Below, in pieces: positions 3,001 to 64,000 of a stretch of DNA of 64,000 bases (position 1 is the first letter of the stretch; every line of letters begins with the position of its first letter). A program made the translations under genes and the position numbers. Source of the stretch: Naegleria gruberi (Eukaryota); the NCBI GenBank assembly GCA_000004985.1, contig GG738879.1. The stretch is one strand, 5' to 3'. Below the pieces are notes generated by a model that saw only the letters and a list, made by a program, of their open reading frames with translations, was not told the origin of the DNA and made no database searches.

Positions 3001-6000
3001 CATATCGAAAAGTCAAAGAAAGTATTCCATCAGGATGTCCCAGAGGAATTATTAGAAGAGAAGAAAACTATTCCAAAATGGGATTTAAAGAAAATTATCT
3101 TTTCTGGTGGTGTTAAATGTGTTAATGTTAACGTTTTACAATCACTCTCTGTACCTAATATTATACCTGAGTCACCTTTACAAGGAACAGTTTCTGCATA
3201 TTCTATCAAACTTTTTGCTACTGATTTTGTAGCTTCTGGATCTGTAACTTTGAGAAAAGTGGAAGAGGAAAAGAAAGTAAGCTCTGAACTATTTTCTATT
3301 GAAGGTTTTGGAAAATGTCTAGAGGTTGGAGGTATTTCTCAGTGCTTAGATAGTAAAACATACCATTACAAAGGTATTGATCCTTCTGAGTTACCACTTT
3401 ACTTCTTACAAAGGGTAAATCTAATACCAGACGCACCAATAGTTGCAGCAATTCTTGTAGAGGACGTTCATTTCCAAGGTAAAAATAATATCAAGGAGGA
3501 AAACTCTCAGGGAAGATTTACCTGTACAGTAGGAAAGCAAGGTTCTCTAGGATCAGGTGTTTCTGTACTCTTTACTCATGATATAATTGTAATTTCATAT
3601 TCACTTGTAGAAGTGTGGAGAAAAGTTATCACAGATATGGTATTGAATGTTAGAAACTATTTGAGGTTACGACACGTCTATGATTTGCTACTACTTAGTC
3701 AAGTTTCAAAGAAAGCTGTATCCAATACATCAGAAAACCTCTATGGAGTCTTGGAAAAAAAGCAAGCTTTGAAACATTTAAGAGCTTCTCTCTACTCTTT
3801 AACTTTTGCTGACTGTAGAAGTATTCAAAAGTTTATGCATTCTCATATAGGAATGGAAGTTGATTCAAAGGTAGAAATGAGAGCAATAAGAAATGAATAC
3901 TCTGAATTGATAGAAGACGAAGACCATGCCCCTCAAATTCATACAAGCAAAACCTCTGTGAGATTGAGAACTGATATCTCTTTCCACTTGGAACGACTTG
4001 ACCTTTCAGTTCATTCTGTTGATTTTAAAACAAAAGTTTACACAAAGAGTATTGCAAAGTTTAATGATATTTTAATGAGAGGAAAAGTAGAACATAGTTT
4101 GAATCCACTTTTCGAAACTGAGTACAAGAAATTTGAATCAGAAAATGCACAAAAGATAAGAGATATTTCTCTTATTTTATCAGTGAATTGTAGAGCCTTT
4201 AGTATTGATATTCACTCTCAAACTCTCATCCTTTTAACTTCAGCGCTTGGAGTATTCTTAATTGTTAAAAACAAACCTTTCATTAAAAAGTTGAGAGAAA
4301 AAGAAAAAAAGAACAAAAACAAAAATCCTCAACAAAACCACGGAGAAATTAAGGAGATAACACACGATGTTTCTGCATCAACCCATGAACCAGAGGGTGA
4401 AAAAGAAATACCAGTGTACCAAGAAAAAGTAGTCCTAAAACTGAATGTATTTACAAATGTTAATGTACAAAAAGCAACCGCTAGAGCATGGATGGACAAG
4501 AATAGTTTTGCAGAACTCAGTATTGATAAGTTTTCTCTACTCTTCAATCAACCTAAAAGCTCAGAAGAGCACATGCTAGCCATCAATAATGAGGAAAACA
4601 AGTCAGAGAAGAAGAGTAATCTTAAAATGGTACATAGTAGTAATATTTCCATTAACAAAATTCTATTCCAGTTCAATTATACAACTCCTGAAAAAACAAA
4701 CGAGAGAACAAAAGAGTTTATTTCTCTCTTTGATGTTACTGTGAATGATATTAGACTTAATGAATTTTTATTCAAAGAAAAGGACTTGAATGTGCATGCC
4801 TATTTTGCATTTGATAAGCTTTTAATTAATCTTCCATTTGCTGATGTTTGGTCTGCATCTTCAGTACAATTTAGGCTGTTTGTGAAAACATGGTATGAAG
4901 CTATCAAAAGAAAGCCTAATTTACCAAGCTTTGACATTTCAAAAGATTCTTCTCAACCAAAACAAGACCAAGAGCAACCCAAATCACCTATTAATTTCAA
5001 TATTCCTGCAATTAATATTGTTCTTGATTTGAATGATATTTCTGCATACTTCAAGTTGGTAGATTCTTTCCAAATGAGATATAGTCTCACGAAACTAACA
5101 GCTCACTTCAAGCAAAATTCAAAACTTGACAATAACTTTATGGTACACTTGTTCCCGCATTCGTTTACTTTGAAATCAAAGAATGATGAAGAATTTCCAA
5201 ACTCCAACAAGTGGGAAGGTCCAAGAAGCACAACACTTGGTTCGAATGAATTCAGAAAGATTTTCATTCTTCCTGAAGTTATTGTTTCTGGAAGTTTAGA
5301 AAATAAGGACAATAATGGTACTACACAGAGAATACTTTCCACTTTAATAGCTATTGATTACTTTGAAAATGTGGTTACAAGTGATTTGTTAAATCATGTT
5401 ATTGTCATTCAATCCGCTGTTACAAAAGAGATTAACAAGATCATTGAAAGCTTGAATAAGGGTGTTGAAGATTTAGAAAAAATCAAAAACGAATTACCAA
5501 AAGCTAAAAAGAATGTCAGATCTCTCAATCTTTTCTTTGATGTAAAGCTTTTGTTTGAAGGAATTAGAATCACAGCTCTTGGACCATCTACAGCTCTGGT
5601 TGTTGACTCTGGATCAGTTAATGTTACAGCTTCCAACATTGAACATGTACGAGTCAAGATGTCACTCAAAGGTCTAAATATTAATATGGTAGACACCCAC
5701 AACATCAAATGGGCAAGTACAAGAAAGTACAACAATAGATATTCTGAAACAAGTGAGTGTTACCAGTGGGCCCAATTCCAATCAAACCTTCAAGTTCAAA
5801 ACTTCCTGGATACTAAATTATCTACAACAGACAAACAATCCACCAAGAATTTCACTCTCGATATTTCAAATACCCATCTATACCTTAGACCTGGATGTAT
5901 AGAGCAAGCACTATTTTTATTTAAAGATTACAAGCAATCAGTCCAAACTGTGTTTGAAAAGTTAAAAGAGGCTAGACAAAAGAATAGATCTGAAGCTTTA

Positions 6001-44407: not shown

Positions 44408-47147
44408 TTATTCTTGGAGCACAACTTCAAAACTATGAACTGTCTCAGGATATTCAGAAATCATCTTTGTAACGACTGATTGCAGCTTTGATCCTTGATT
44501 CTTTTGATTTTCTAACTCTTCATTTACATCTGTTGGTTTTTTGGCAGTTCCTTTCAGAATATTTTGACACTTTTCAACCAGTTTCTTCAGTCTTTCTCTA
44601 TCAAAGCCAGTCTTTGTCTTTTGAGCTGACATTGTTTGCAGCTCCTCCTGTAAAGAATTAATGTCATTTCTAACAGAATCAATCTTTTGTCTTGCTTCCT
44701 CAATAGCCATTCCACTTTGTTCCGCAGCCATTTGAAGGGATTTGATAGCTTGGAACGCATCAGCAGCTTTTTTCTTTTTCCTTGTAATTTCTGATTGGAG
44801 GAAAGACAATTCTCTTTGAACATTTGCTTTGGTATTTGTAGAGTTCTTGGATTGAACAACCCTTCCTTTCGTAAGAATTAAATCTCTCTTCTCAATTGCC
44901 TTTTCCATTTCCAAAATCTTTCTCTTTTGTTCTCGCTTCAAATCATTTAATCTTTGTTCCATCAAGTGAATTTCCTTCTTCATTCTCGTTATTTCTTCTT
45001 GACCAACATTTGGATCAAGTGCTTCCTGAATTTCCTTTTGGATTTCAATCTTCTTATCCCAGAATAGAATTTGACGTCTTGGACATGTTAGTATGAAATC
45101 AAGGTAATACTTACTCTACATCAACAAGCTCGTTAATAATTGTTTTCTTTTGAGATTTGGTTTCTTCTATGAGATCTTCCAATCTGAAAGCCTCTCTTTC
45201 ACTTTCTTTCAATCTATCAAGAATCTTGTTTTCCAAATCATAATTGACATCAGCCAAACTATTTTGGGTTAGGTAGTTGGTTGAAATTTTCTTATTAAGT
45301 TTTTCGAGGACTTTGTGCATTTTTTGCATTTCGCCATTAAGGGACTTGATTTGGTTTCTTTCTCTAGTTGCTGATCCATCACTTCTACCCTTTCTTTGGG
45401 ATAAAATTGTTTGTTTGCTCTTGATAGATTTAATCTCATCAGAGAGTTCTTCGGATCTATTCATGAGCTTTACCAATTCGCTTTGGTATCTTGTCCAATC
45501 TTTTTTAAGTTGTTCACTTTCTTTCTCTTTAGCCTCAATAGCTTTAGAGATATTCTTGATTGTTGCTTCTAATGGCCCTTGGTTCTCATCTTTTTGATTT
45601 CCTAAGAGTTTTTCCATAAGTCTATTCAATTTATCCAAATCGCCTTGTTTCTTTTCAATATCGTCATTCTTTCTTCTAATCTCGAGCTCATACTTTTCAA
45701 TCAAACTATCCTTTTGTTTTAGGTCCGATTCAAGGTCCTTAAGAACTTGCTCAAGTTGAATATTATGATCTTGAGTTTGAAGTCTGTCAATTGTGATTCT
45801 TGCTAGCTCATTTTCCGCTTGTGAAAGCTCAACTTCCTTATCAACAACAGCATTCTTCTTCTTTTCAATGTCCTTAAGGGTGTTTTGACAATCCTTCTTG
45901 ATGGTAGTGTTTTCACTAAATAAATCAAGGATTTCTTCTTCCAAAAGCCTAATATCATTACTTGCTTTAGCCATCTTCTTTTCAACTACGTCAATATCCT
46001 TTCTGATAGTCTTAATATTCGCTTCCTCTTTAGCAATTTCTTGATCTGTCTTATCCAGAGTATTTCTAAGTTGCATATATTGTTGTTGCTTATTTTCCAA
46101 AGTTGCATTACTGTCGAGTATTTGTTTTTCCAAATATGTTTGCTCATTTTCATTCTTGATTAAAATTGAGGTAAGTTGTTCGTGCTTTTCTTTTTGTTCG
46201 TTAATTGACTTTTTGTAGCCTTCAATTTCATTTTGAATCTCAATAACTTGCTCCTTTTGTTTGCGTAACCCTTCTTCAGTAGCTTTAAGAGCCTCATCTC
46301 TTCTTTGCATACCAATCACACTTGTTTTCCATTGTTGGATAAGTCTCTTTTTCTCAAACTCAAGAGCTTCCATTTCAGTTGTTGCTTCAGCGAGAGTTTC
46401 ACTAGCAACTTTATACTCCTCTTTTTGAGCCTTGTGCAATTCCTCATATTCTTCAAATTGGTCTTTGAGCTTTCTAACTCTATCCATCATTTGATCTATT
46501 CTAAAATCTTGTTGCTTTTTTTGCTTTTCAACTTCTTCCATTTCCTTTTCAATTTTATGAGTTTTTCTCTTCTTGATAGCAATATCTCTCTTTGTTTTTT
46601 CATTTGCTGTAACTAACATTCTGAGAGTTTGTTGAGATTTTTCCAACTCATCTTGATATTTATACACTTTAAAACAATGTAAATAGAATATTTCTATTAG
46701 AAACCTACATTTTTTTCTCTTCTCATCAACATCGGATCTCTTAGCCTTAGCCATTTGAAGTTGATCATTTCTCTTTCTTTCCATTTCTTCTCTGATTTGA
46801 GTCATCATAATTAAATTATCGTGACCTTTATCAACATTCTCTTGAAGTTTTACAAGTTTTTGTTGTGTATTATAGAGATTGACACCCAAAGCTTCCCTTT
46901 CTTCCCCAATTTTTCTTTGTCTTTCATCCTTTTCAAAAGATTAGAGTTATCGGAAATGATGAAAACTTACAATTTCCTTATGTTGGAGAGTGAGTTCCTC
47001 TAATTGTCTTTGATATTGCTCTGAGATTCTGGCTTGGAGTGTAGCCAAAATTGGCTATTAAGAAAAAAGTATTAATCAATAAATCGTCATCATAAAACCT
47101 ACACTATTTGGGTCTACTCCTCCAAAGTCTGCAATATTTGGATCCAT
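44408..47147 (-). CDS. Long coiled-coil protein (about 870 aa); axonemal CCDC39/40-like is only a guess. Exons 47103-47147, 46971-47054, 45115-46928 (with possible 42-nt in-frame intron 46667-46708), 44408-45077.
   Basis: Introns of 48, 42 and 37 nt (GTAGGT/GTAAGT...AG) restore one frame: MDPNIADFGGVDPNS|PILATLQARISEQYQRQLEELTLQHKEI|DERQRKIGEE...LVDV-E|RQILFWDKKIEI.... Heptad-rich K/E/Q composition throughout. Confidence 0.75.
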
Positions 47148-47349: not shown

Positions 47350-47679
47350 TTATCCTTCCTTCCATTGATGACCACATTTACAACACTTGAAGAATTGAGT
47401 CATAGGTTCATCAGCAGATCTAGTTTGGAACATTTGGAAATAAGCCTTGTTATGGTCACATTTTCCACATTTTGTTTCCACTGTTTCGGACCAGTTGGCT
47501 TCGTCATCAATAACATCATCAACTTCCTTCTTTTCCAAATTCATATCAAAATACATTTCACTCTTAATATTACAAATATATGGGCAAGTTTTGCAGACCC
47601 ATCTATAGACTGAATCTGTTGAACGACCTGCTGCTTTTTCGATTAGCAGGATGTTTCCGCATTGTGGACAAAAGAACAT
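47350..47679 (-). CDS. POLR3K: DNA-directed RNA polymerase III subunit RPC11 (POLR3K; TFIIS-type zinc ribbon)
   Basis: MFFCPQCGNILLIE... N-terminal zinc ribbon and C-terminal ...QTRSADEPMTQFFKCCKCGHQWKE, near-identical to the POLR3K/TFIIS acidic hairpin motif. The likely start is the internal Met (47679) rather than the ORF-track start. Confidence 0.85.
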   Translation of the reverse strand: MFFCPQCGNILLIEKAAGRSTDSVYRWVCKTCPYICNIKSEMYFDMNLEKKEVDDVIDDEANWSETVETKCGKCDHNKAYFQMFQTRSADEPMTQFFKCCKCGHQWKEG

Positions 47680-47787
47680 TTTTTTCAAAAACAAATTTGC
47701 ATTTAAAAATTCAAATTCAAGCAAACAACCATCAAATAATAATAAATAACAACAATTAATGAATTATAATTTTGTACAATGTTTTAT

Positions 47788-48076
47788 TTAGATACATCTG
47801 ATCAAACCACCAAAACCCAAGAAACAAGCAAAAGCACCTCCTCCTTGTAACACAGCTTTAATTCCGGTTGTTTTCAAAAATTGTTTTCTGTTTCCTCTCA
47901 TGGATGGCATTAAAGAATAGCCTAAAATTGTCTATTAATTCATTTTGTCTGTATGAATAAAATTATATACACTAATAACCTACCAATCCAGCCATACCAC
48001 CTCCGACAAGAAATCCTGTCAGAGCTCCCATACCAACAGATGTTGGACAATCATTAAAGTTCTTCTTTTTGGCCAT
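47788..48076 (-). CDS. ROMO1: ROMO1/Mgr2-family small mitochondrial inner-membrane protein. Exons 47984-48076 and 47788-47931.
   Basis: Not in the ORF track (split by a 52-nt GTAGGT...AATAG intron). Spliced product MAKKKNFNDCPTSVGMGALTGFLVGGGMAGL|TILGYSLMPSMRGNRKQFLKTTGIKAVLQGGGAFACFLGFGGLIRCI (78 aa). Gly-zipper TM pair and C-terminal G.GIRC match ROMO1 (...GMGIRC). Confidence 0.7.
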
Positions 48077-48167
48077 TTATTATTAAATTTTTTTATTACT
48101 TGGTTTTTTCAAAAATTGATTGGATTTCTCCCCAATTTTGGATTTAATCAAAATGTCTTTATTCGTC

Positions 48168-50168
48168 TTAATTTAAAAATGATTTTAATGAAAATCCTTC
48201 ATTTTCACAACCTTCCTTAATATTTAATAAATTGGTACATAAATCTGCAGAAGAAGGTCTTTGTTCATGGTCAACTGAAAGAGTTTGCATTACTAAATCT
48301 ACAAGTGGAGCTGGGTAAAATCCTTTTTGAGAAAGTTTTTCTTTCACTGTTTGAAGTCCACTTGCTCCTTTAGTAAGTAATTGAGCACAAATATTAGTAT
48401 CCATTTCCTTTGTCATTAATTGATATAATACAACACTATATTTCAAAAATTAAAATAATTAAATTATTAACTAAACATACCCTAAACTCCAAATATCAGC
48501 CTTCAATCCATACGGTTCATTACTAAACACTTCACTATTATTTCAAATAACTAAGAAAATCATATCAGAAAGAAACTTACGGACTCTACAAAATGTTAAT
48601 GTGAAAAACATTATTAGAAACTTACCATAAAAAGAAGTGTTCCAGCCTTTGTTTGATTTTGGGTGTTATCAATTTGTTTCGACAAACCAAAATCTCCCAA
48701 AACAATATTTATCACGGTTGCATCCAAATTCTTGACAAAAATATTTTGTGGTTTGATATCTCTATAAAATAGGTTTAGAAATTAATAATTTCTATATTTA
48801 CCTGTGAATTAATCTTCTCTCGTGTAAATAGCTCAATGCCTTTGCCATTTGATAAAATACAGCAAAGACTATTTGTTTTGGTACCATTGCTGTACCAATT
48901 GTTTTTCTATTTAAAAATTTAAATTCCAAAGTTAATAATCTTATAAAACAAACCTTATATATGTATCCTATAATATACATGTTTAGAAATATTCTGAAAT
49001 TTTAGAGTTTAAACTTACTAAATCACCATGTGAATAATATTCCATACAGAAACAAAGTCCTTTGGTAGGTTCATATTTGAAAATTTCATAAGTTTTTAAA
49101 ACATAAGGATTATCCAATGACAACATGGCTGTTGCTTCTCTATTTGCATTTTCCATTTCCATTTCATCATCGAATGTTACAACTTTAACTGCTCTAATAT
49201 CGTCACCAATTCCACTTTGAGTAATTCTAACTTTATAAACAACACCAAATCCACCTTTACCAATTCTTTCCAAAATTTCATATTTTCCATTTAACATATT
49301 TGCACTATCCGTAGGTGTTTGAGCAGTTAGCTTATTATCTTTAACGTGATTTAAAATTAGTGTTTTAATATCAGGATTTTTTGTCCATTTATCAGGTGTA
49401 CTTCCAAATGTATCTGTTATTGATTTGTTTGCTCCATGATCCAATAGACATTTTACAACCTCTTTAGAACATAAGTGAGCTGCCTAAATTTTGAAATTAA
49501 TTATTTGAGAAAATTAACAAACATACCAAATGAAGTGGTGTTTGTTTTAACTCATCTTTTGTTGTAACATTCAATTGAATATCGTTAGCTTCCAATAATA
49601 ATTTTACCATATCATAACAATTTTTCTTACAAGCAGCATGAAGAGCTGTCCATCCATTCTACTCAATGTAAATATAAATTGAAATGTGAATATATGAAAC
49701 AAACATTTTGATCTTGAATATTAACATGGGCTCCATGTCTGATTAATAATCTTGCTGCTTCCACTTGATTACTACTCGCTGCTTCATAAAGTGGTGTCTA
49801 AATAATTGATGATCATCCTCATTAATCAAATTATAAAACCTACATGCTGTTATTTTCCACAATTTAATATTATTTCATTAATAAGAATATAAATCAAACT
49901 TACTCCTTTCTAAAACAAAATATAAATTTGAACAAATAATAATAAATACATACTGGTCCATATTCATTGATTAAATTAAGTGCCTCTTTTGCTTTCAACG
50001 TTTCCGTAAGTGTTTCTATTCAAGTCGGAACAATATGAACATCATATCCAATCAATCATAATTGATTCAACATCATTTTCCATCAAATAACTTACCAATG
50101 TCACCTTCTCTTGACGCTTTACTCAGTGTTTTTTTAATTTCACGTTCCACAGAATTTGATACTCCCAT
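48168..50168 (-). CDS. Ankyrin-repeat Ser/Thr protein kinase, at least 9 exons with 40-110-nt introns and putative micro-exons
   Basis: N-terminal MGVSNS (myristoylation-type). Ankyrin repeats (TPLYEAASSNQVEAARLLIRHGAHVNIQDQN / GWTALHAACKKNCYDMVKLLLEAN / TPLHLAAHLCSKEVVKCLLDHGANK). Kinase domain (IGKGGFGVVYKV...AVKVV...HRDIKPQNIF...GDFGLS...SPEV...DIWSLG) assembled from ORF-track fragments 48168-48446, 48798-48980, 48983-49444 and unlisted short exons. Confidence 0.8.
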
Positions 50169-50941
50169 TACTTTGTGCAATCCAAACAAATAATTCGTTA
50201 CTGAGTTCGATATTTTTTTAAAAAGGTGACTTTCATTGAAAAGGTGGTATGAAGGGATAACGCGTTATTGGAAGCTCAAAATTGAATAGTAATATTCCAT
50301 GATCAACTCAACTCAAATGGTCACATTCAATATTTTCATTTCTCCCCACATTATTGGTTAATAATTAGTTGTATTGAATGAATATTGGTGAAAAAGTTCA
50401 TAAGGAATGCAATAAAGAAACTCAAATCCAATAAAGCTCTGATTGATCTCATAATTAGATTCTCCATTCTGCAGAATCTACTGATATGTTCTTCATTACC
50501 AAATATCTATCTTAAAATTCAATAATAATCAAATAGCAAACAAGGTAGTTGTTTGTCCAAATTCAATTCTGAATTGTGATTCATTCACAACGCATCAAAA
50601 AAGATCCAATCATATGAAAACCAGCATGTTTGTATGATGAAATTCCTCATTCGTAAAAAGCATCTTCTTGTGCGTGTCAGTAAACAAGCAAATTCAATGG
50701 AGTAAACGGCGCTTGAGAATAACTTCGGGGCACTTGTGGGACTATAAAACTCGACACCCAGAAATACAATGCACTCATATTTAGATAAACAAAAAGAAAC
50801 AAAATCAATTCAGCTAACAACTGGTGTTTTATTATCCAACTCACACATTTGTTACTGCTGCTTATCTAGCTTGCGTACCGCCCCACTAAAATAGATTACA
50901 ACAAATCTTTGAAAAACAATCGACAACAAGGCTTTTGAGAG
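50169..50941. promoter_or_regulatory. About 770-bp divergent intergenic region between the ankyrin-kinase gene (minus) and the Myb gene (plus); probable bidirectional promoter
   Basis: Positional inference only. It is the longest ORF-free spacer in the window. Confidence 0.3.
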
Positions 50942-56898: not shown

Positions 56899-59800
56899 TT
56901 AAAGATATTTGACTAATAACTTGACATCATGAACTTGTTTGTTAATTCTATAAAATGGTCTTAATGTTCTACCCAATAATTCAAGTTGTTCATCTTCTCC
57001 TTGTTTGAAAATGAAATACTTGTAACAATCAATTGGATTCCATTTCAAATTCAAATCACAAATTAATTGAGATTCTTCCAAGGTTGATTCATTGAATGAC
57101 TTAGTAATTTCAACTTGTTCAATTGGTTTCAAGTTCAAATCTAACAATTTTTCACCAATATTCAAATAACCTAATTTCATTGCATAATAATCTTCTTCAT
57201 TACTATCAATAATGGAATGTTCATCAGAAGGTGATGGAGTTGAATCACTTTGAATACAATCAATATAAATATTTGTAATTTCATCATCGAATTCAATAAT
57301 ATTATTCAAAGAATAAGTTTTTAATATCCAACCACCATTCATCATTTCAGATTTAACATTTTGATCCATTTTACTCAAATCAATTAAACCTAATTTTACA
57401 GTTTCAATTAATAAATGTAAAGAAGAATATTTTTCATTAAATTCATTACTATATTTAAATGCATATTGAATATTTGTTATATTATTATTTAAATTATTAT
57501 TTAAATTATTTAATTTAATACTAGTTTTAAATAATTTAAATCTTGTTAATTTTACTTCATCTTGATTAAATTTTCCATAAAATTCTAAACAATTTCCACC
57601 TAAAAAGGAATCTAAATAATTAAAATTCCAATTAATTGAATATTCTTGTCCAATATTTAAAATTTTATAATTTCTAAAATTAGGTAATAAATCTTGTTCA
57701 GAAATATCATTCCATTTTAATACATTTTGATTATTTCCATAAATGTAATAATTTAATCCAACACCTGAATTAAAAAATGTTGAAAATAAATTTTTAATTA
57801 ATTTTTCATTTAAATAATTTGAATTATTTTCATTTTTACTTTTTAATTTTAAATTTAAAGAACAATTTGAAATTCTTGATCCAAAATTTCCCGCCCAATT
57901 TTCAACATCCTTTCCACCATGTTCCCAAATTATTGTTTTAATTAAATTTATATTTTTTAAAATAAAATTAAAATTAATACATTTCCAATTAGAGTTACAA
58001 ATAATTTCACCAGAATTAAATTCTTTAATAATTTTATCATTTTTATCTAAAAATTTAATTTTTAAATAAAATAAATCTTGACAATTTGGTTCAGTTCCTT
58101 TTATCCAACATTTTGCATTTAAAATTAAATTATTTAAATTATTATTATTTCCATTTATATCAATTTCATTTAATATAAAAGGTAAATTAATTAATTGTTC
58201 CATTTTTGACCAATTAAAAGATGAAATAAAAGATTTTGATTGATTAAAATCATTATTTAAAGATTTAATCCAATTTCCATTTATATTCCAACCTTCAAAT
58301 TCATTTAATTGTCCATTTCCATTTTTTAATAATTCAATAATTTTATAATTTCCATTCCAAAATAAATTTTCAATATTTTCATATTCATTTCTAATTAAAT
58401 TTAAATTTTCAATATTTTCTAAATTTGTAAAATTATTAAAATAATTTTCATAAATAAAACCTGGAGCAAATAAGGCAATAGATGTTTCATATTTGTTAAT
58501 TTCATTTAATGCTATTTTAGTATTAAATTGTCCACCACCATATTGTCCTCTACCAAATATATCTATACCTGTAAATATTTTATATTTATTTAATTTTTTA
58601 TTTAATTTTAAATTATTTTCTATTAAAATATTTTGTAATAGATTTAAATTATTTAAATTATTATTATTTTGTAAATTATTTTCTAATAAATTAATAAAAT
58701 TATTTAAATTAATTAAAGAATTATTTAACATTTCAGGTTTCCAATTATAATTTAAAAAAATTCCATCACTTTCATTTAAAAAAATTAAATTTTTTTCATT
58801 TAATTCATTTTGCCATTTTAATTCTCCATTTGGATAAATAATTGAATCATACCAAATTATTTTAGAATTTTTAATTAATTCTTTACATTTTAATTTTAAA
58901 TATTTAATAAAATTAATTAATTTTAAACATAAATCTTGATTTAAATTACATTCTATATTTAGAAACCATCCATCAAATTTATAATAAATTGCTAAATTTA
59001 TCAAATAATCAGCAAATTGTTCATAATTTCCATTTAAAATTTTAGAAATTTCTTTACTTCCTTCATCCCATTCAAAAATTAAATTTCCTAAAACTAAAAT
59101 TCCATTTTTATGTGCAATTTCAGTCCAACCAACAGGTGGTATTGTAATTCTATTTAATATTTAATATATTTAATATTATATAATATTTAATATTTAAAAT
59201 AAATTTAAAAAATAAAAAAAACAAACCTTTCATGACTAAAATAAATAAAAATATCAACAAATTGCCAATAATTAAAATTAAAAGTTAAAAAATCATTTCC
59301 ACTTTGAATAAATTTATCATTTAAATATCCACCTTTCATATCATGACATAAAATTACTTTTTGTCTATTTTTAGTAAAATTATTTTTAAAATTAATTTTA
59401 GCAATATTTAAATCATCTTTAAAATTAAATTCTTGATTAATTGAATAAATTGGTTCTGAAATTATTTTAAATGGTTCATTAGATATTTCTAAAGATGGAA
59501 ATGAATAATTAAAATTAAAATTAAAAATTTCATTTGAAAAATAAAAAAATAAATTTTGTAAAATTCCTTTAAATGGTTTTGAATTTTCTAATTTTGGTGG
59601 AATTATAAATGGATTAAAATTATTTATAATTGAATTTAAATTATTAAAATTTAATTCTTGTTCATATTCTAATTTATTATATTTAGTAATTTTAATTAAT
59701 AATTTATTTTTAAATATTAATTGAATATGATACCATTTATATAAATTAAAATTATAATTAATTATTAAATCATTAATTATTAATTTGTTATTTAAATATG

Positions 59801-60062
59801 TTGATAATTTAATTAATAAATCTCCTTTTTTTAAAATTGTAAAATAATTTGAATTTAATAATTCTAAAAAGTAAATTGAAAAGGAAATATTTAATGTAGA
59901 TTCAGAATTAGAAATTATTATTGGTGCATGAATTTTTAAATTTTCATTATTATTTGTAATAAAATTACATGATGGAAGTAAATTAATTAAATTTGATGGT
60001 AATGAAAGTTGTAGATGTGGATCGGATAGATGATCACTATCATTACTAATACTTTCATTCAT
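56899..60062 (-). CDS. Cytosolic endo-beta-N-acetylglucosaminidase (glycoside hydrolase family 85, ENGase). Exons about 59227-60062 and 56899-59149. Extremely Asn-rich.
   Basis: GH85 signature across the 77-nt intron (GTTTGT...AAATAG): KVILCHDMKGGYLNDKF...NYWQFVDIFIYFSHE|RITIPPVGWTEIAHKNGILVLGNLIFEWDEG...FDGWFLNIE. The long C-terminal region is dominated by N/I/K-rich low complexity. Start codon uncertain (first in-frame ATG at 60062; the ORF opens at 60125 with TTG). Confidence 0.8.
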
Positions 60063-61546: not shown

Positions 61547-63073
61547 ATGCATCAGTTGTTGTTGCTGCTGTTGGTGCTTCGTCATCCTTCATGGCATTAT
61601 CATGATCTTCATCATCCGAAGATAATTCGTAGTACACTATCATCATCATCAACAACATCAACAATATCATCACTTCCATGTAGAGAAAAGGAAATTGAAC
61701 AAATTAAAACATCACTATCAAATTGTATACAATTATCATGTCCTAAAACAATGTACATTGCAGGAGAACCAGGTACAGGTAAAACAGCCTGTATTAAACA
61801 AGTATTAAATGATTTGGAAAATGAATATAATAATACATCATCAAATAATAGTAATAATAATAATAATAATAGTAAAAGTAATAGTAATAATAATAATATA
61901 CATAAATTTAAATATATATTTATTAATGCAATGAAATTAAATCAACCATTTAAAGCCTTTGAAATTATCTATGATCAAGTTATTAAAAATTCCAATAATA
62001 AATTAAAAATCAAGCCTAAAAAAGCGCAATATAAACCACGTATAGAAAATTATTTTAAAAATTCCAAAACATTTAACAAACGTAAATATTTAATTATAAT
62101 AATAGATGAAATGGATTTTTTTGTAACAAAAACATCTAATAATACTAAAAATATACATTTATTATATGATTTAGTTGATATAACAAGAGATTCTAATAGT
62201 AAATTATGTATAATTGGAATTAGTAATACAGTTTCATTATTAGATCAATTAAATAGTAAAATTAAAAGTAGATTTGATGAAATGATAACTTTTTTTCCAT
62301 ATGAAAATGATCAAATTAGAACAATAATTGAAAGTAAAATATTAACAAATTATGATAATTATTTTGAAAAGGGTGCAATTAAAATGATTGGTTCTTTAAT
62401 TGCTAGAAAAGCAGGTGATATACGTCAAGCTATTGATATTATTAAAAGATGTATTGAAATTTATTCTATAAAAGGAAATTTACAAGAAAAGAAAATTGAT
62501 TCTTTATTTGTTAAATCAATTGCAACTGATTTTACAGATAGATATCCAATTTCACAATTAAGTATTTATCATAAAATATTTTTATATTGTACTATTTTGG
62601 AATATGAAATGAAATTAAAAAATTTAAAAGAAAATCAAAATTTAAATAATTATGAATCAAATCCAAATAATTTATTATTTGAACGTATTGTAATGAGATT
62701 TCAAAATTTATTAGCAATGTTTGAAAATTCAATGAATATAAATAGTATTACTACTACTACTACCACTTTCAATAATAGTAATAATAATAATTTAAATAAT
62801 AATAATAATAGTACTTCCAATAATAATAGTAATAATTCAATGAATAATAATAATTTAAATAATTCCAATAATATAAAATATTCATTTATAAATCCAAGTT
62901 TAGATCAATTACAATTAATAATGTTTACATTATGTGAATTGGGAATAATTTCAATTGATAATGATAAAAGAGAACGTTTACCAATTATACATTTTGAAAC
63001 TGAATATCAATTATTATTATTTAATTTAGAACAAGATGATGAAATGAAACCAATTATGAAATTAAATAAATAA
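61547..63073 (+). CDS. Cdc6/Orc1-family AAA+ replication initiation protein; N-terminus uncertain
   Basis: SLPCREKEIEQIKTSL...MYIAGEPGTGKTACIKQVL (Walker A), IIIDEMDF (Walker B), sensor and winged-helix regions. Long poly-Asn inserts. The first about 40 codons of the ORF (MHQLLLLLL...) look non-coding and overlap a better-looking antisense ORF. Confidence 0.7.
   Translation: MHQLLLLLLVLRHPSWHYHDLHHPKIIRSTLSSSSTTSTISSLPCREKEIEQIKTSLSNCIQLSCPKTMYIAGEPGTGKTACIKQVLNDLENEYNNTSSNNSNNNNNNSKSNSNNNNIHKFKYIFINAMKLNQPFKAFEIIYDQVIKNSNNKLKIKPKKAQYKPRIENYFKNSKTFNKRKYLIIIIDEMDFFVTKTSNNTKNIHLLYDLVDITRDSNSKLCIIGISNTVSLLDQLNSKIKSRFDEMITFFPYENDQIRTIIESKILTNYDNYFEKGAIKMIGSLIARKAGDIRQAIDIIKRCIEIYSIKGNLQEKKIDSLFVKSIATDFTDRYPISQLSIYHKIFLYCTILEYEMKLKNLKENQNLNNYESNPNNLLFERIVMRFQNLLAMFENSMNINSITTTTTTFNNSNNNNLNNNNNSTSNNNSNNSMNNNNLNNSNNIKYSFINPSLDQLQLIMFTLCELGIISIDNDKRERLPIIHFETEYQLLLFNLEQDDEMKPIMKLNK
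61846..61905. repeat. AAT/AGT trinucleotide microsatellite (poly-Asn/Ser coding) within Cdc6/Orc1; a second tract at about 62770-62880
   Basis: Direct reading: aataataataataataatagtaaaagtaatagtaataataataat. Confidence 0.8.
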
Positions 63074-63124
63074 TATTTTTTGAACATCACATTAATATAA
63101 TTTATTTGTTCTTTTTGTAATAAA

Positions 63125-64000
63125 TTATAATTCATCTTTATTTTCTAAAGCAATAATTGAATTTGTCTCATCAGATAATTTCCATTCCATATTATTTTTA
63201 TCATTTTTATCATTTTTATCATTTCCATTATTTTCATTTTCATTATTTTCATTTCCATTTTCATTATTATTTAAATTAGATGAAGGTAATAAAAGTTTAA
63301 AAGGAATGTCTAAACATAAATGTTCAATCATTTCTCTTCTTTGTGGATCATGTTCTAATTGTTGATATTTATAAATTCTTAAAGTAGCTTCATGTGTACC
63401 ATTTAAAATGGAATATAAAGGTCTTTCTATATTAATATGATATGTTTTGTTTAAATTTATAATTGGACAATTTGAATCTTGTAATTTACAATTAATTTCT
63501 AAATTATTTTTAGATTGGTTTCCTAAAAAAGAACCACAACAAATATCATATGGTCCTTTATATTTAATTTTTTGACCTGTTTCTTCATGCCATAATTCTA
63601 AATTATAAAATAAATGATTAGTTTCCATAATTGGTTCATTAAATTTAATATCCATTTCAATTTTAACACCAGGTGTATTATATCTAGTAGGTACAATTGT
63701 TAAATGTGAAGTAATTAATGAAATTAAAGAATCTTCTTCATCATAACAATGTTTCCATTGTATAAATTTAGTATATGGTTTTGTAAATTTATTTTTTAAT
63801 GATTTAATTTTAATATTTCTATTATTAATTTGATCATTATTTAATTTATTTAAATTTTTAACATTGGAATTTAATGTTTTAAATTTTACTTTTTCTTTTA
63901 AACTTGCCTTTTCTTGACAATTTATTTGTATATTATTTAATATTGTTGTTAATAATAATAATAGTGATAATAATAGTGATAGTATTGTTGTTGTTGTTGT
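63125..64000 (-). CDS. Secretory/ER-lumenal protein ending in KDEL, 5'-partial (runs off the window end)
   Basis: ORF 63125-63655 ends ...ENKDEL*. The same frame stays open upstream to 64000 and encodes a hydrophobic signal-peptide-like stretch (ILSLLLSLLLLLTTIL) near the window edge. Internal N/E/D/K 9-nt repeats. Confidence 0.6.
   Translation of the reverse strand, partial: TTTTTILSLLLSLLLLLTTILNNIQINCQEKASLKEKVKFKTLNSNVKNLNKLNNDQINNRNIKIKSLKNKFTKPYTKFIQWKHCYDEEDSLISLITSHLTIVPTRYNTPGVKIEMDIKFNEPIMETNHLFYNLELWHEETGQKIKYKGPYDICCGSFLGNQSKNNLEINCKLQDSNCPIINLNKTYHINIERPLYSILNGTHEATLRIYKYQQLEHDPQRREMIEHLCLDIPFKLLLPSSNLNNNENGNENNENENNGNDKNDKNDKNNMEWKLSDETNSIIALENKDEL
63181..63270. repeat. 9-nt tandem repeats (TTTATCATT / TTTTCATTA variants) encoding an NENGNENNENENNGNDKNDKNDKNN tract in the KDEL-protein gene
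   Basis: Direct reading. Confidence 0.8.

Follow-up and report, generated by a model that had tools for sequence, protein, structure and literature searches.

A five-nucleotide micro-exon very probably supplies the Ser-Pro of the kinase SPE motif in an ankyrin-repeat kinase gene of Naegleria gruberi

The locus described here lies in a 64,000-nucleotide (nt) stretch of contig GG738879.1 of Naegleria gruberi, hereafter the window, and all N. gruberi coordinates are positions in it. The minus strand, on which the gene is read, carries a predicted ankyrin-repeat / NEK-like Ser/Thr kinase, and we compare its exon structure with those at the corresponding loci of Naegleria lovaniensis (L001) and Naegleria fowleri (L002, VFQX01000074.1). 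The element in question is a 5-nt segment, AGTCC, that would supply Ser and the first two bases of the Pro codon in the kinase SPE (APE) motif. The gene model, assigned on the intact open reading frame (ORF), the domains and the colinearity with orthologues, and the immediate surroundings of AGTCC are as follows (slashes in sequences mark splice boundaries throughout).

48168..50168, minus strand: whole coding region of the ankyrin-repeat / NEK-like Ser/Thr kinase; 13 exons, 1416 nt, 471 amino acids
50168-50096, 50015-49954, 49909-49904, 49846-49844, 49797-49705, 49658-49527, 49483-49019, minus strand: exons 1-7
48967-48954, 48906-48802, 48761-48626, 48585-48581, 48534-48481, 48435-48168, minus strand: exons 8-13
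48626..48761, minus strand: 136-nt exon coding (R)DIKPQN...DFGLSKQIDNTQNQTKAGTLLFM, of equal length in three species
48586..48625, minus strand: upstream intron, 40 nt, GTAAGT...TTTTGTAG, with CATTAAC ~11 nt 5' of the AG
48581..48585, minus strand: putative 5-nt coding micro-exon AGTCC; phase 0 in, phase 2 out
48535..48580, minus strand: downstream intron, 46 nt, GTAAGT...AATAATAG
48481..48534, minus strand: 54-nt exon coding (P)EVFSNEPYGLKADIWSLG, of equal length in three species

Spliced in this way, the 13 exons read as 471 codons with 0 stops, where the unspliced region holds 44-60 stops in each frame. The introns measure 40-80 nt, most of them 40-51 nt. The spliced protein scores 174.4 bits with the Pkinase profile PF00069 (cut-off 31.7), covers profile positions 1-258 of 263, and presents all of the catalytic motifs: GKGGFG, AVK (RAVKV), HRDIKPQN, DFG (GDFG), SPE, DIWSLG and HEQRP. 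As the catalytic motifs other than SPE are also intact, the predicted protein is expected to be an active kinase. Ankyrin repeats occupy approximately residues 40-155, with strong ankyrin-1 matches over the same range; repeat 1 reaches 30-35 bits with PF00023 (cut-off 21.1; the ankyrin profiles tested were PF00023 and PF12796). The nearest solved kinases are NEK1 (1e-31) and NEK7, yet EGFR and CDPK score similarly, and several protein-search matches at ~35% identity are named NIMA-related.

The protein starts with MGVSNS in N. gruberi (50151-50168, minus strand) and with MGANNS in N. fowleri (L002 3001-3018). Its Gly2 start fits the MGxxxS/T pattern of N-myristoylated proteins, which suggests a membrane-associated kinase. 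In N. lovaniensis the conserved MG(A/V)xNS start is found without an ATG (L001 3760-3780, ...tcagtaGCTGCCAACTCT...), and the public model starts ~770 nt upstream (MLVAANS...); the missing ATG could reflect a true change, faulty gene modelling or an error in the assembly.

A first-pass annotation of this DNA had described AGTCC as flanked by ttttgtAG, an acceptor, and by the donor GTAAGT, and the minus-strand sequence bears this out. The 5' flank of the segment is CATTTTGTAG (cattttgtAG acceptor) and its 3' flank is GTAAGTTTCT (GTAAGTttct donor). The preceding exon ends ...AAGGCTGGAACACTTCTTTTTATG/GTAAGT (AAG GCT GGA ACA CTT CTT TTT ATG, KAGTLLFM); the following exon starts at aataatAG/TGAAGTGTTTAGTAATGAACCG... 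and closes at ...TTA GG/GTATGT. Joining ATG, AGTCC and TGAAGTG gives M-S-P-E-V, and the protein continues as ...GTLLFM-SP-EVFSNEPYGLKADIWSLG. Without AGTCC the frame shifts and meets stops in at most 10 codons. The predicted spliced sequence is CTTCTTTTTATG-AGTCC-TGAAGTGTTTAG, with CTGGAACACTTCTTTTTATGAGTCCTGAAGTGTTTAGTAATGAAC as its junction k-mer. The claim that the segment restores both the frame and the S/APE motif also stands: the model that includes it is the sole one with an intact ORF and a canonical kinase domain. As a micro-exon (<=15 nt), AGTCC thus combines canonical AG/GT bounds and viable introns, of 40 and 46 nt and typical in size for this gene, with a frame and a motif that need it and with conservation in orthologues.

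The acceptor of the segment is a tandem AG-AG (tAGAG/TCC; 48586-48589, minus strand) in all three species. Splicing at the second AG (tagAG/TCC) was rejected, as it reads ATG TCC TGA, an in-frame stop, and the first AG must therefore be chosen precisely. A zero-length recursive splice site was likewise set aside: 5 nt stand between AG and GT, and they are needed in the messenger RNA (mRNA).

We enumerated all in-frame single-intron alternatives with GT-AG, GC-AG or AT-AC ends. There are nine, and the APE motif is deleted or corrupted in every one. The Pkinase score is 174.4 bits with AGTCC, 140.9 if the segment is skipped in favour of a cryptic acceptor, and 155.3 for the other near alternative. 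Within the kinase gene, internal AG-N(1-20)-GT[AG][AGT]GT patterns occur at conserved micro-exon sites only. A look-alike elsewhere in the window, AG-GAAATT-GTAAGT at 46965-46978, is the ordinary end of a CCDC39 exon and was discarded.

The decisive evidence on the segment comes from comparison with the two other species. The top protein match is an N. fowleri protein with 64% identity; clustered with it are one more N. fowleri model and one from N. lovaniensis. The orthologues are C9374_011583 of N. lovaniensis (KAG2373918.1) and FDP41_010011 (KAF0971788.1/XP_044556504.1) and CAG4709126.1 of N. fowleri; the N. gruberi protein is colinear with them at 67-68% identity. Both loci read ...TTTATG/GTAAGT...cAG/AGTCC/GTAAGT...AG/TGAAATTTTG... 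(TGAAAT at the start of the downstream exon), and the orthologous AGTCC exons are invariant.

L001 5418-5422: orthologous AGTCC exon of N. lovaniensis
L002 4747-4751: orthologous AGTCC exon of N. fowleri

When the proteins are threaded exactly onto the DNA, the triplet of 136-, 5- and 54-nt exons is identical in the three species, and AG-AGTCC-GTAAGT forms 13 invariant columns in the three-way alignment. The flanking introns, once the splice consensus is removed, have pairwise identities of 0.42-0.57 versus 0.46-0.57 for shuffled sequence, and they stay at the shuffled level even for the close pair N. fowleri / N. lovaniensis. The corresponding values for the flanking exons are 0.76-0.94 versus 0.58-0.62; the 54-nt exon shares 76% identity between N. 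gruberi and its orthologues and 94% between N. lovaniensis and N. fowleri. KAG2373918.1 contains FMSPEILCNQAYGFKTDVWSLG (FMSPEILCNQ) and threads on the N. lovaniensis genome only via the 5-nt exon. That genome was annotated with BRAKER1 and RNA sequencing (RNA-seq) data (PMC6125883), and its model, through these RNA-seq hints, lends indirect transcript support to the exon.

In N. lovaniensis the paralogue C9374_010600 (L003) encodes SPE contiguously, and the nearby intron interrupts it four codons earlier. The micro-exon thus belongs to this orthologue group alone and does not reflect a general intron pattern of kinases. Two metagenome scans, one with TTTATGGTAAGT-N25-55-AGAGTCCGTAAGT and the other with a pattern anchored on the downstream exon, yielded no further orthologous loci.

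AGTCC is accompanied by three further tiny exons of the same gene, one of them a candidate only.

49904..49909, minus strand: 6-nt micro-exon AAAGGA, coding Lys-Gly of the first ankyrin repeat in phase 0/0; flanks TTTGTTTTAG and GTAAGTTT
49844..49846, minus strand: candidate 3-nt micro-exon CAT (His), cAG/CAT/GTAGGT, predicted here and in no annotation
48954..48967, minus strand: 14-nt micro-exon GATACATATATAAG (D-T-Y-I-R, the last by its first two bases), tattatAG/.../GTTTGT; the frame needs it

The 6-nt exon had already been raised as a second candidate, with ttttAG and GTAAGT flanks; these are as described, and the exon is conserved as AATGGT in the two other species. N. lovaniensis (L001 4031-4036) and N. 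fowleri (L002 3271-3276) both read aatAG/AATGGT/GTAAGT (Asn-Gly), and the Gly codon differs from that of N. gruberi at the third position only. This region was aligned by hand, MAFFT having misaligned it owing to unequal intron lengths. Two of the three public models (KAG2373918.1 and CAG4709126.1) include the 6-nt exon, and one N. fowleri model skips it.

In all three species the longest apparent intron of the gene directly follows the 6-nt exon (106, 109 and 133 nt). A 3-nt exon would split it into introns of ordinary size (57+46, 52+54 and 61+69 nt). The triplets equivalent to CAT are ttAG/TTT/GTAAGT in N. lovaniensis (L001 4089-4091) and aAG/TAT/GTAAGT in N. fowleri (L002 about 3338-3340), so that the exon would add His, Phe or Tyr from codons one base step apart (CAT / TTT / TAT). 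With it the protein would read GP-KG-H-TPLYEAA, the canonical ankyrin G-x-TPL, as in the human ankyrin-1 repeats KGFTPLYMAA and KGNTALHIAA seen in the alignments. The single-repeat ankyrin profile gives its top score with both exons in all three species; the annotated form, with only the 6-nt exon, scores lowest.

PF00023 score, N. gruberi: 34.9 with 6 + 3 nt; 31.4 with neither; 30.3 with 6 nt only
PF00023 score, N. lovaniensis: 42.9 with 6 + 3 nt; 38.1 with neither; 37.2 with 6 nt only
PF00023 score, N. fowleri: 43.6 with 6 + 3 nt; 38.4 with neither; 37.6 with 6 nt only

In N. gruberi, Ank_2 and Ank_4, which are multi-repeat profiles, give no clear separation of "both" from "neither". The background of AG-N3-GTRRGT is 7 per window, which we estimate at a few per thousand per lineage for an intron of this size. 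On this genomic evidence the 3-nt exon is likely to be real, if unproven. It is in frame, hence its optional inclusion could be conceived. The predicted N-terminal junctions are GGACCAAAAGGACATACACCAC (6 + 3 nt), GGACCAAAAGGAACACCAC (6 nt only) and GGACCAACACCAC (neither).

The 14-nt exon, which the first-pass annotation had not raised, lies in an apparent 112-nt intron; without it the frame shifts after ...EYYSHGDL, and its predicted junction is GGTGATTTAGATACATATATAAGAAAAACAATTGG. Only N. gruberi has it: N. fowleri and N. lovaniensis lack the intron that precedes it and encode GDLDSYIR without interruption. Very short exons (5, 6, 14 and a probable 3 nt) thus appear to be tolerated repeatedly in this gene. 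GTAAGT, the strongest donor form, is used in every one of the three species before and after the 5-nt exon and downstream of the 6-nt exon; other donors of the gene drift (GTATGT, GTAGGT, GTGCGT, GTTTGT, GTAAAT and GTACGT). Two introns of N. fowleri and N. lovaniensis are lacking in N. gruberi. Introns of the kinase gene have therefore been turned over, but the three species share every intron next to the 5-, 6- and probable 3-nt exons.

We conclude that AGTCC is, very probably, a true coding exon internal to the gene, placed between two U2-type GT-AG introns and completing S-P-E. Several points weigh against this reading. The bare pattern is not rare, as AG-N5-GTAAGT is seen once in the window (both strands) versus 1.58 expected from shuffles, and the five invariant exonic bases alone would not be significant. 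In N. fowleri, KAF0971788.1 and CAG4709126.1 both give GTWLFM/TDVWSLG, with the same donor joined to a cryptic AG within the next exon. The support for inclusion comes from genomic sequence and gene models, and a search of the protein collection turned up no transcript-derived protein of the kinase gene. That the exon is always included, and in which order its introns are removed, is inferred. The signal at AGTCC is far beyond chance because of its placement in the gap, its fit to the frame and to Ser-Pro, and the presence of the same 13 bases at the same place in two species with randomised introns. By our own arithmetic the chance of AG-N5-GTAAGT in the given 91-nt gap on the correct strand is ~1e-3, and we estimate that a random 5-mer restores the frame and codes [S/A]-P in ~1% of cases (1e-2).

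The structure of the two public N. fowleri models, applied to N. gruberi, amounts to a single 125-nt intron whose donor is the GTAAGT following ...FM and whose acceptor is a cryptic AG within the next exon, with no micro-exon; TTTATG (exon end TTTTTATG) is then joined to GCTGATATTTGG, and the protein reads ...GTLLFM/ADIWSLG with the APE absent. Such an intron is in frame, has GT-AG ends and matches those two models exactly. It also removes 13 residues, S/APE among them, and lowers the Pkinase score by 33 bits, it makes intron of DNA that is 76-94% conserved versus about 50% for true introns, it leaves the invariant AG/AGTCC/GTAAGT island unexplained, and the N. lovaniensis model contradicts it; we judge it highly improbable. 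In N. fowleri itself the models are without 13 activation-segment residues (SPEILCNQAYGFK), SPE among them (L002 4687-4843), and the stretch PEILCNQAYGFK, an intron in these models, evolves like exon. Since the skipped DNA is conserved like coding sequence, the omission of AGTCC in both models is best read as a prediction artefact. Slighter still is the probability that the N. gruberi locus is a pseudogene, or that the assembly introduced a frameshift, with AG/GTAAGT flanks by coincidence. A pseudogene was the outcome that the first-pass annotation had named as fatal to its proposal, and the absence of an N. gruberi protein for this gene among the matches, though proteins of the species are in the collection, speaks for it; the suspicion is contradicted by an intact 1416-nt ORF with micro-exons where unspliced frames are full of stops, by complete catalytic motifs, and by an exon structure kept in two other species with conserved synteny.

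A different alternative accepts the exon and departs from the favoured reading in exon usage only, so that the two overlap. AGTCC would be real but present only in some transcripts, and the skipped form, ...FM-VKCLVMNRMD followed by a stop, would lower the kinase by regulated unproductive splicing. Skipping of AGTCC does give an immediate premature stop, the 6-nt exon and the candidate 3-nt exon, both of phase 0/0, might serve as cassettes, and the annotations of the orthologous locus are mutually inconsistent. The strong invariant GTAAGT donors and the conservation, however, fit efficient inclusion, and mammalian micro-exons of <10 nt that are non-multiples of three were found to be constitutive (PMC9929638). 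We consider partial inclusion unlikely. The AGTCC exon is probably constitutive, because skipping it causes a frameshift and an early stop.

For a genuine, constitutive AGTCC exon we propose the following route. With introns of 40-60 nt, recognition would follow intron definition, in which the two splice sites of an intron pair with one another. Only 5 nt separate the acceptor from the donor, so the two could hardly be occupied together, and the introns would probably be removed sequentially; after the first removal, the 5 nt would sit in a 141-nt or a 59-nt exon of normal size. The strong invariant GTAAGT donors on both sides probably offset the lack of room for exonic signals. A YTNAY-like sequence is found by eye 10-30 nt from the AG in each flanking intron, and CATTAAC, 11 nt 5' of the micro-exon, is the candidate branch point of the upstream intron. 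In the protein, Ser-Pro would join ...GTLLFM to EVFSNEPYGLKADIWSLG and finish S-P-E at the end of the activation segment. The glutamate of the APE motif anchors the kinase activation segment to the C-lobe.

A broader proposition, to which we lean slightly less than even, is that Naegleria routinely and constitutively splices exons of 3-6 nt between introns of ~40-70 nt, with four tiny exons (6, 3, 14 and 5 nt) in one 2-kilobase (kb) gene. If so, splice sites 3-5 nt apart would be usable under pure intron definition, with branch points <=~30 nt away, in the deep-branching Discoba. Naegleria proteomes, including the N. fowleri kinome, would then hold a systematic class of mis-modelled or missing genes.

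The kinase gene seems to be unannotated in N. gruberi, as judged by the protein set of the searched collection. No N. gruberi protein with any exon of the gene is among the protein-search matches, though the collection holds N. gruberi proteins, one of them a predicted protein with 100% identity to an ORF of the window next to the kinase, in keeping with the window's origin, and an exact look-up of three contiguous window ORFs found none on record. The tiny exons are possibly the cause of this absence. The present model brings to light an intact N. gruberi kinase gene that is apparently unannotated, and it restores to two public N. fowleri models 13 activation-segment residues including the APE, which is relevant to work on the pathogen's kinome and drug targets. 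It would widen the known occurrence of coding exons of <=5 nt to include a heterolobosean, whose very short introns leave little room for exon definition, distant branch points and enhancer proteins to act. Four tiny exons in 2 kb also make a compact natural test case for the order of intron removal.

The order of genes around the kinase (window 47350-50300) is shared by the three Naegleria species: Myb, ankyrin kinase, Romo1, TFIIS-type zinc ribbon and CCDC39.

about 47800-48075, minus strand: Romo1, which has an intron
47350-47679, minus strand: TFIIS-type zinc-ribbon protein

Towards the end of the window, positions 58001-60000 and 62001-64000 have a GC content of 15% and 19%, versus about 33% elsewhere. 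These extremely AT-rich segments contain many short imperfect AT-rich tandem repeats, overlapped by long mechanical ORFs.

Micro-exons as a kind are well known in plants and animals, and the orthologous 5-nt exon is already in the N. lovaniensis model; our literature searches found no relevant paper on micro-exons in Naegleria or heteroloboseans. Recursive (ratchet-point) splicing uses zero-length exons, AG/GTAAGT, in long introns of Drosophila and vertebrates. Like AGTCC, such sites present a 3' splice site that nearly abuts a strong 5' splice site, implying stepwise removal. They differ in that 5 coding nt of AGTCC would be retained in the mRNA and in that its introns are tiny, not very long. 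Plants have coding micro-exons of 1-15 nt that are commonly mis-annotated and for which sequential intron removal has been argued (Yu et al. 2022, PMC8831610); examples are a rice transcript in which a 5-nt exon neighbours one of 12 nt, and APC11 and VPS55, which have 1-nt exons (PMC8831610). These resemble AGTCC in being ultra-short and constitutive (for AGTCC, probably so), in lying in conserved motifs (kinase domains too), in their conserved GTRAGT donors, in clustering in one gene and in having been missed by annotation. The Naegleria exon differs in its lineage, Discoba, and in its flanking introns of only 40-69 nt.

The 4-nt exon of human MPC1 is constitutive and is still spliced when cut to 0 nt (PMC9929638). 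Like AGTCC it is a non-multiple of three, so that inclusion is obligatory for the frame, and it leans on strong flanking sites, which suffice even at 0 nt. MPC1 has introns of >12 kb and 3 kb, with exon definition proposed and branch points at -63 and -68 (PMC9929638); the whole upstream intron in Naegleria is 40 nt, which would place the branch point within about 30 nt and makes intron definition likely. The neuronal micro-exons of animals (3-27 nt, SRRM3/4-dependent) are, like AGTCC, small and highly conserved. They are mostly multiples of three, alternative and tissue-regulated, whereas AGTCC is a non-multiple of three and probably constitutive.

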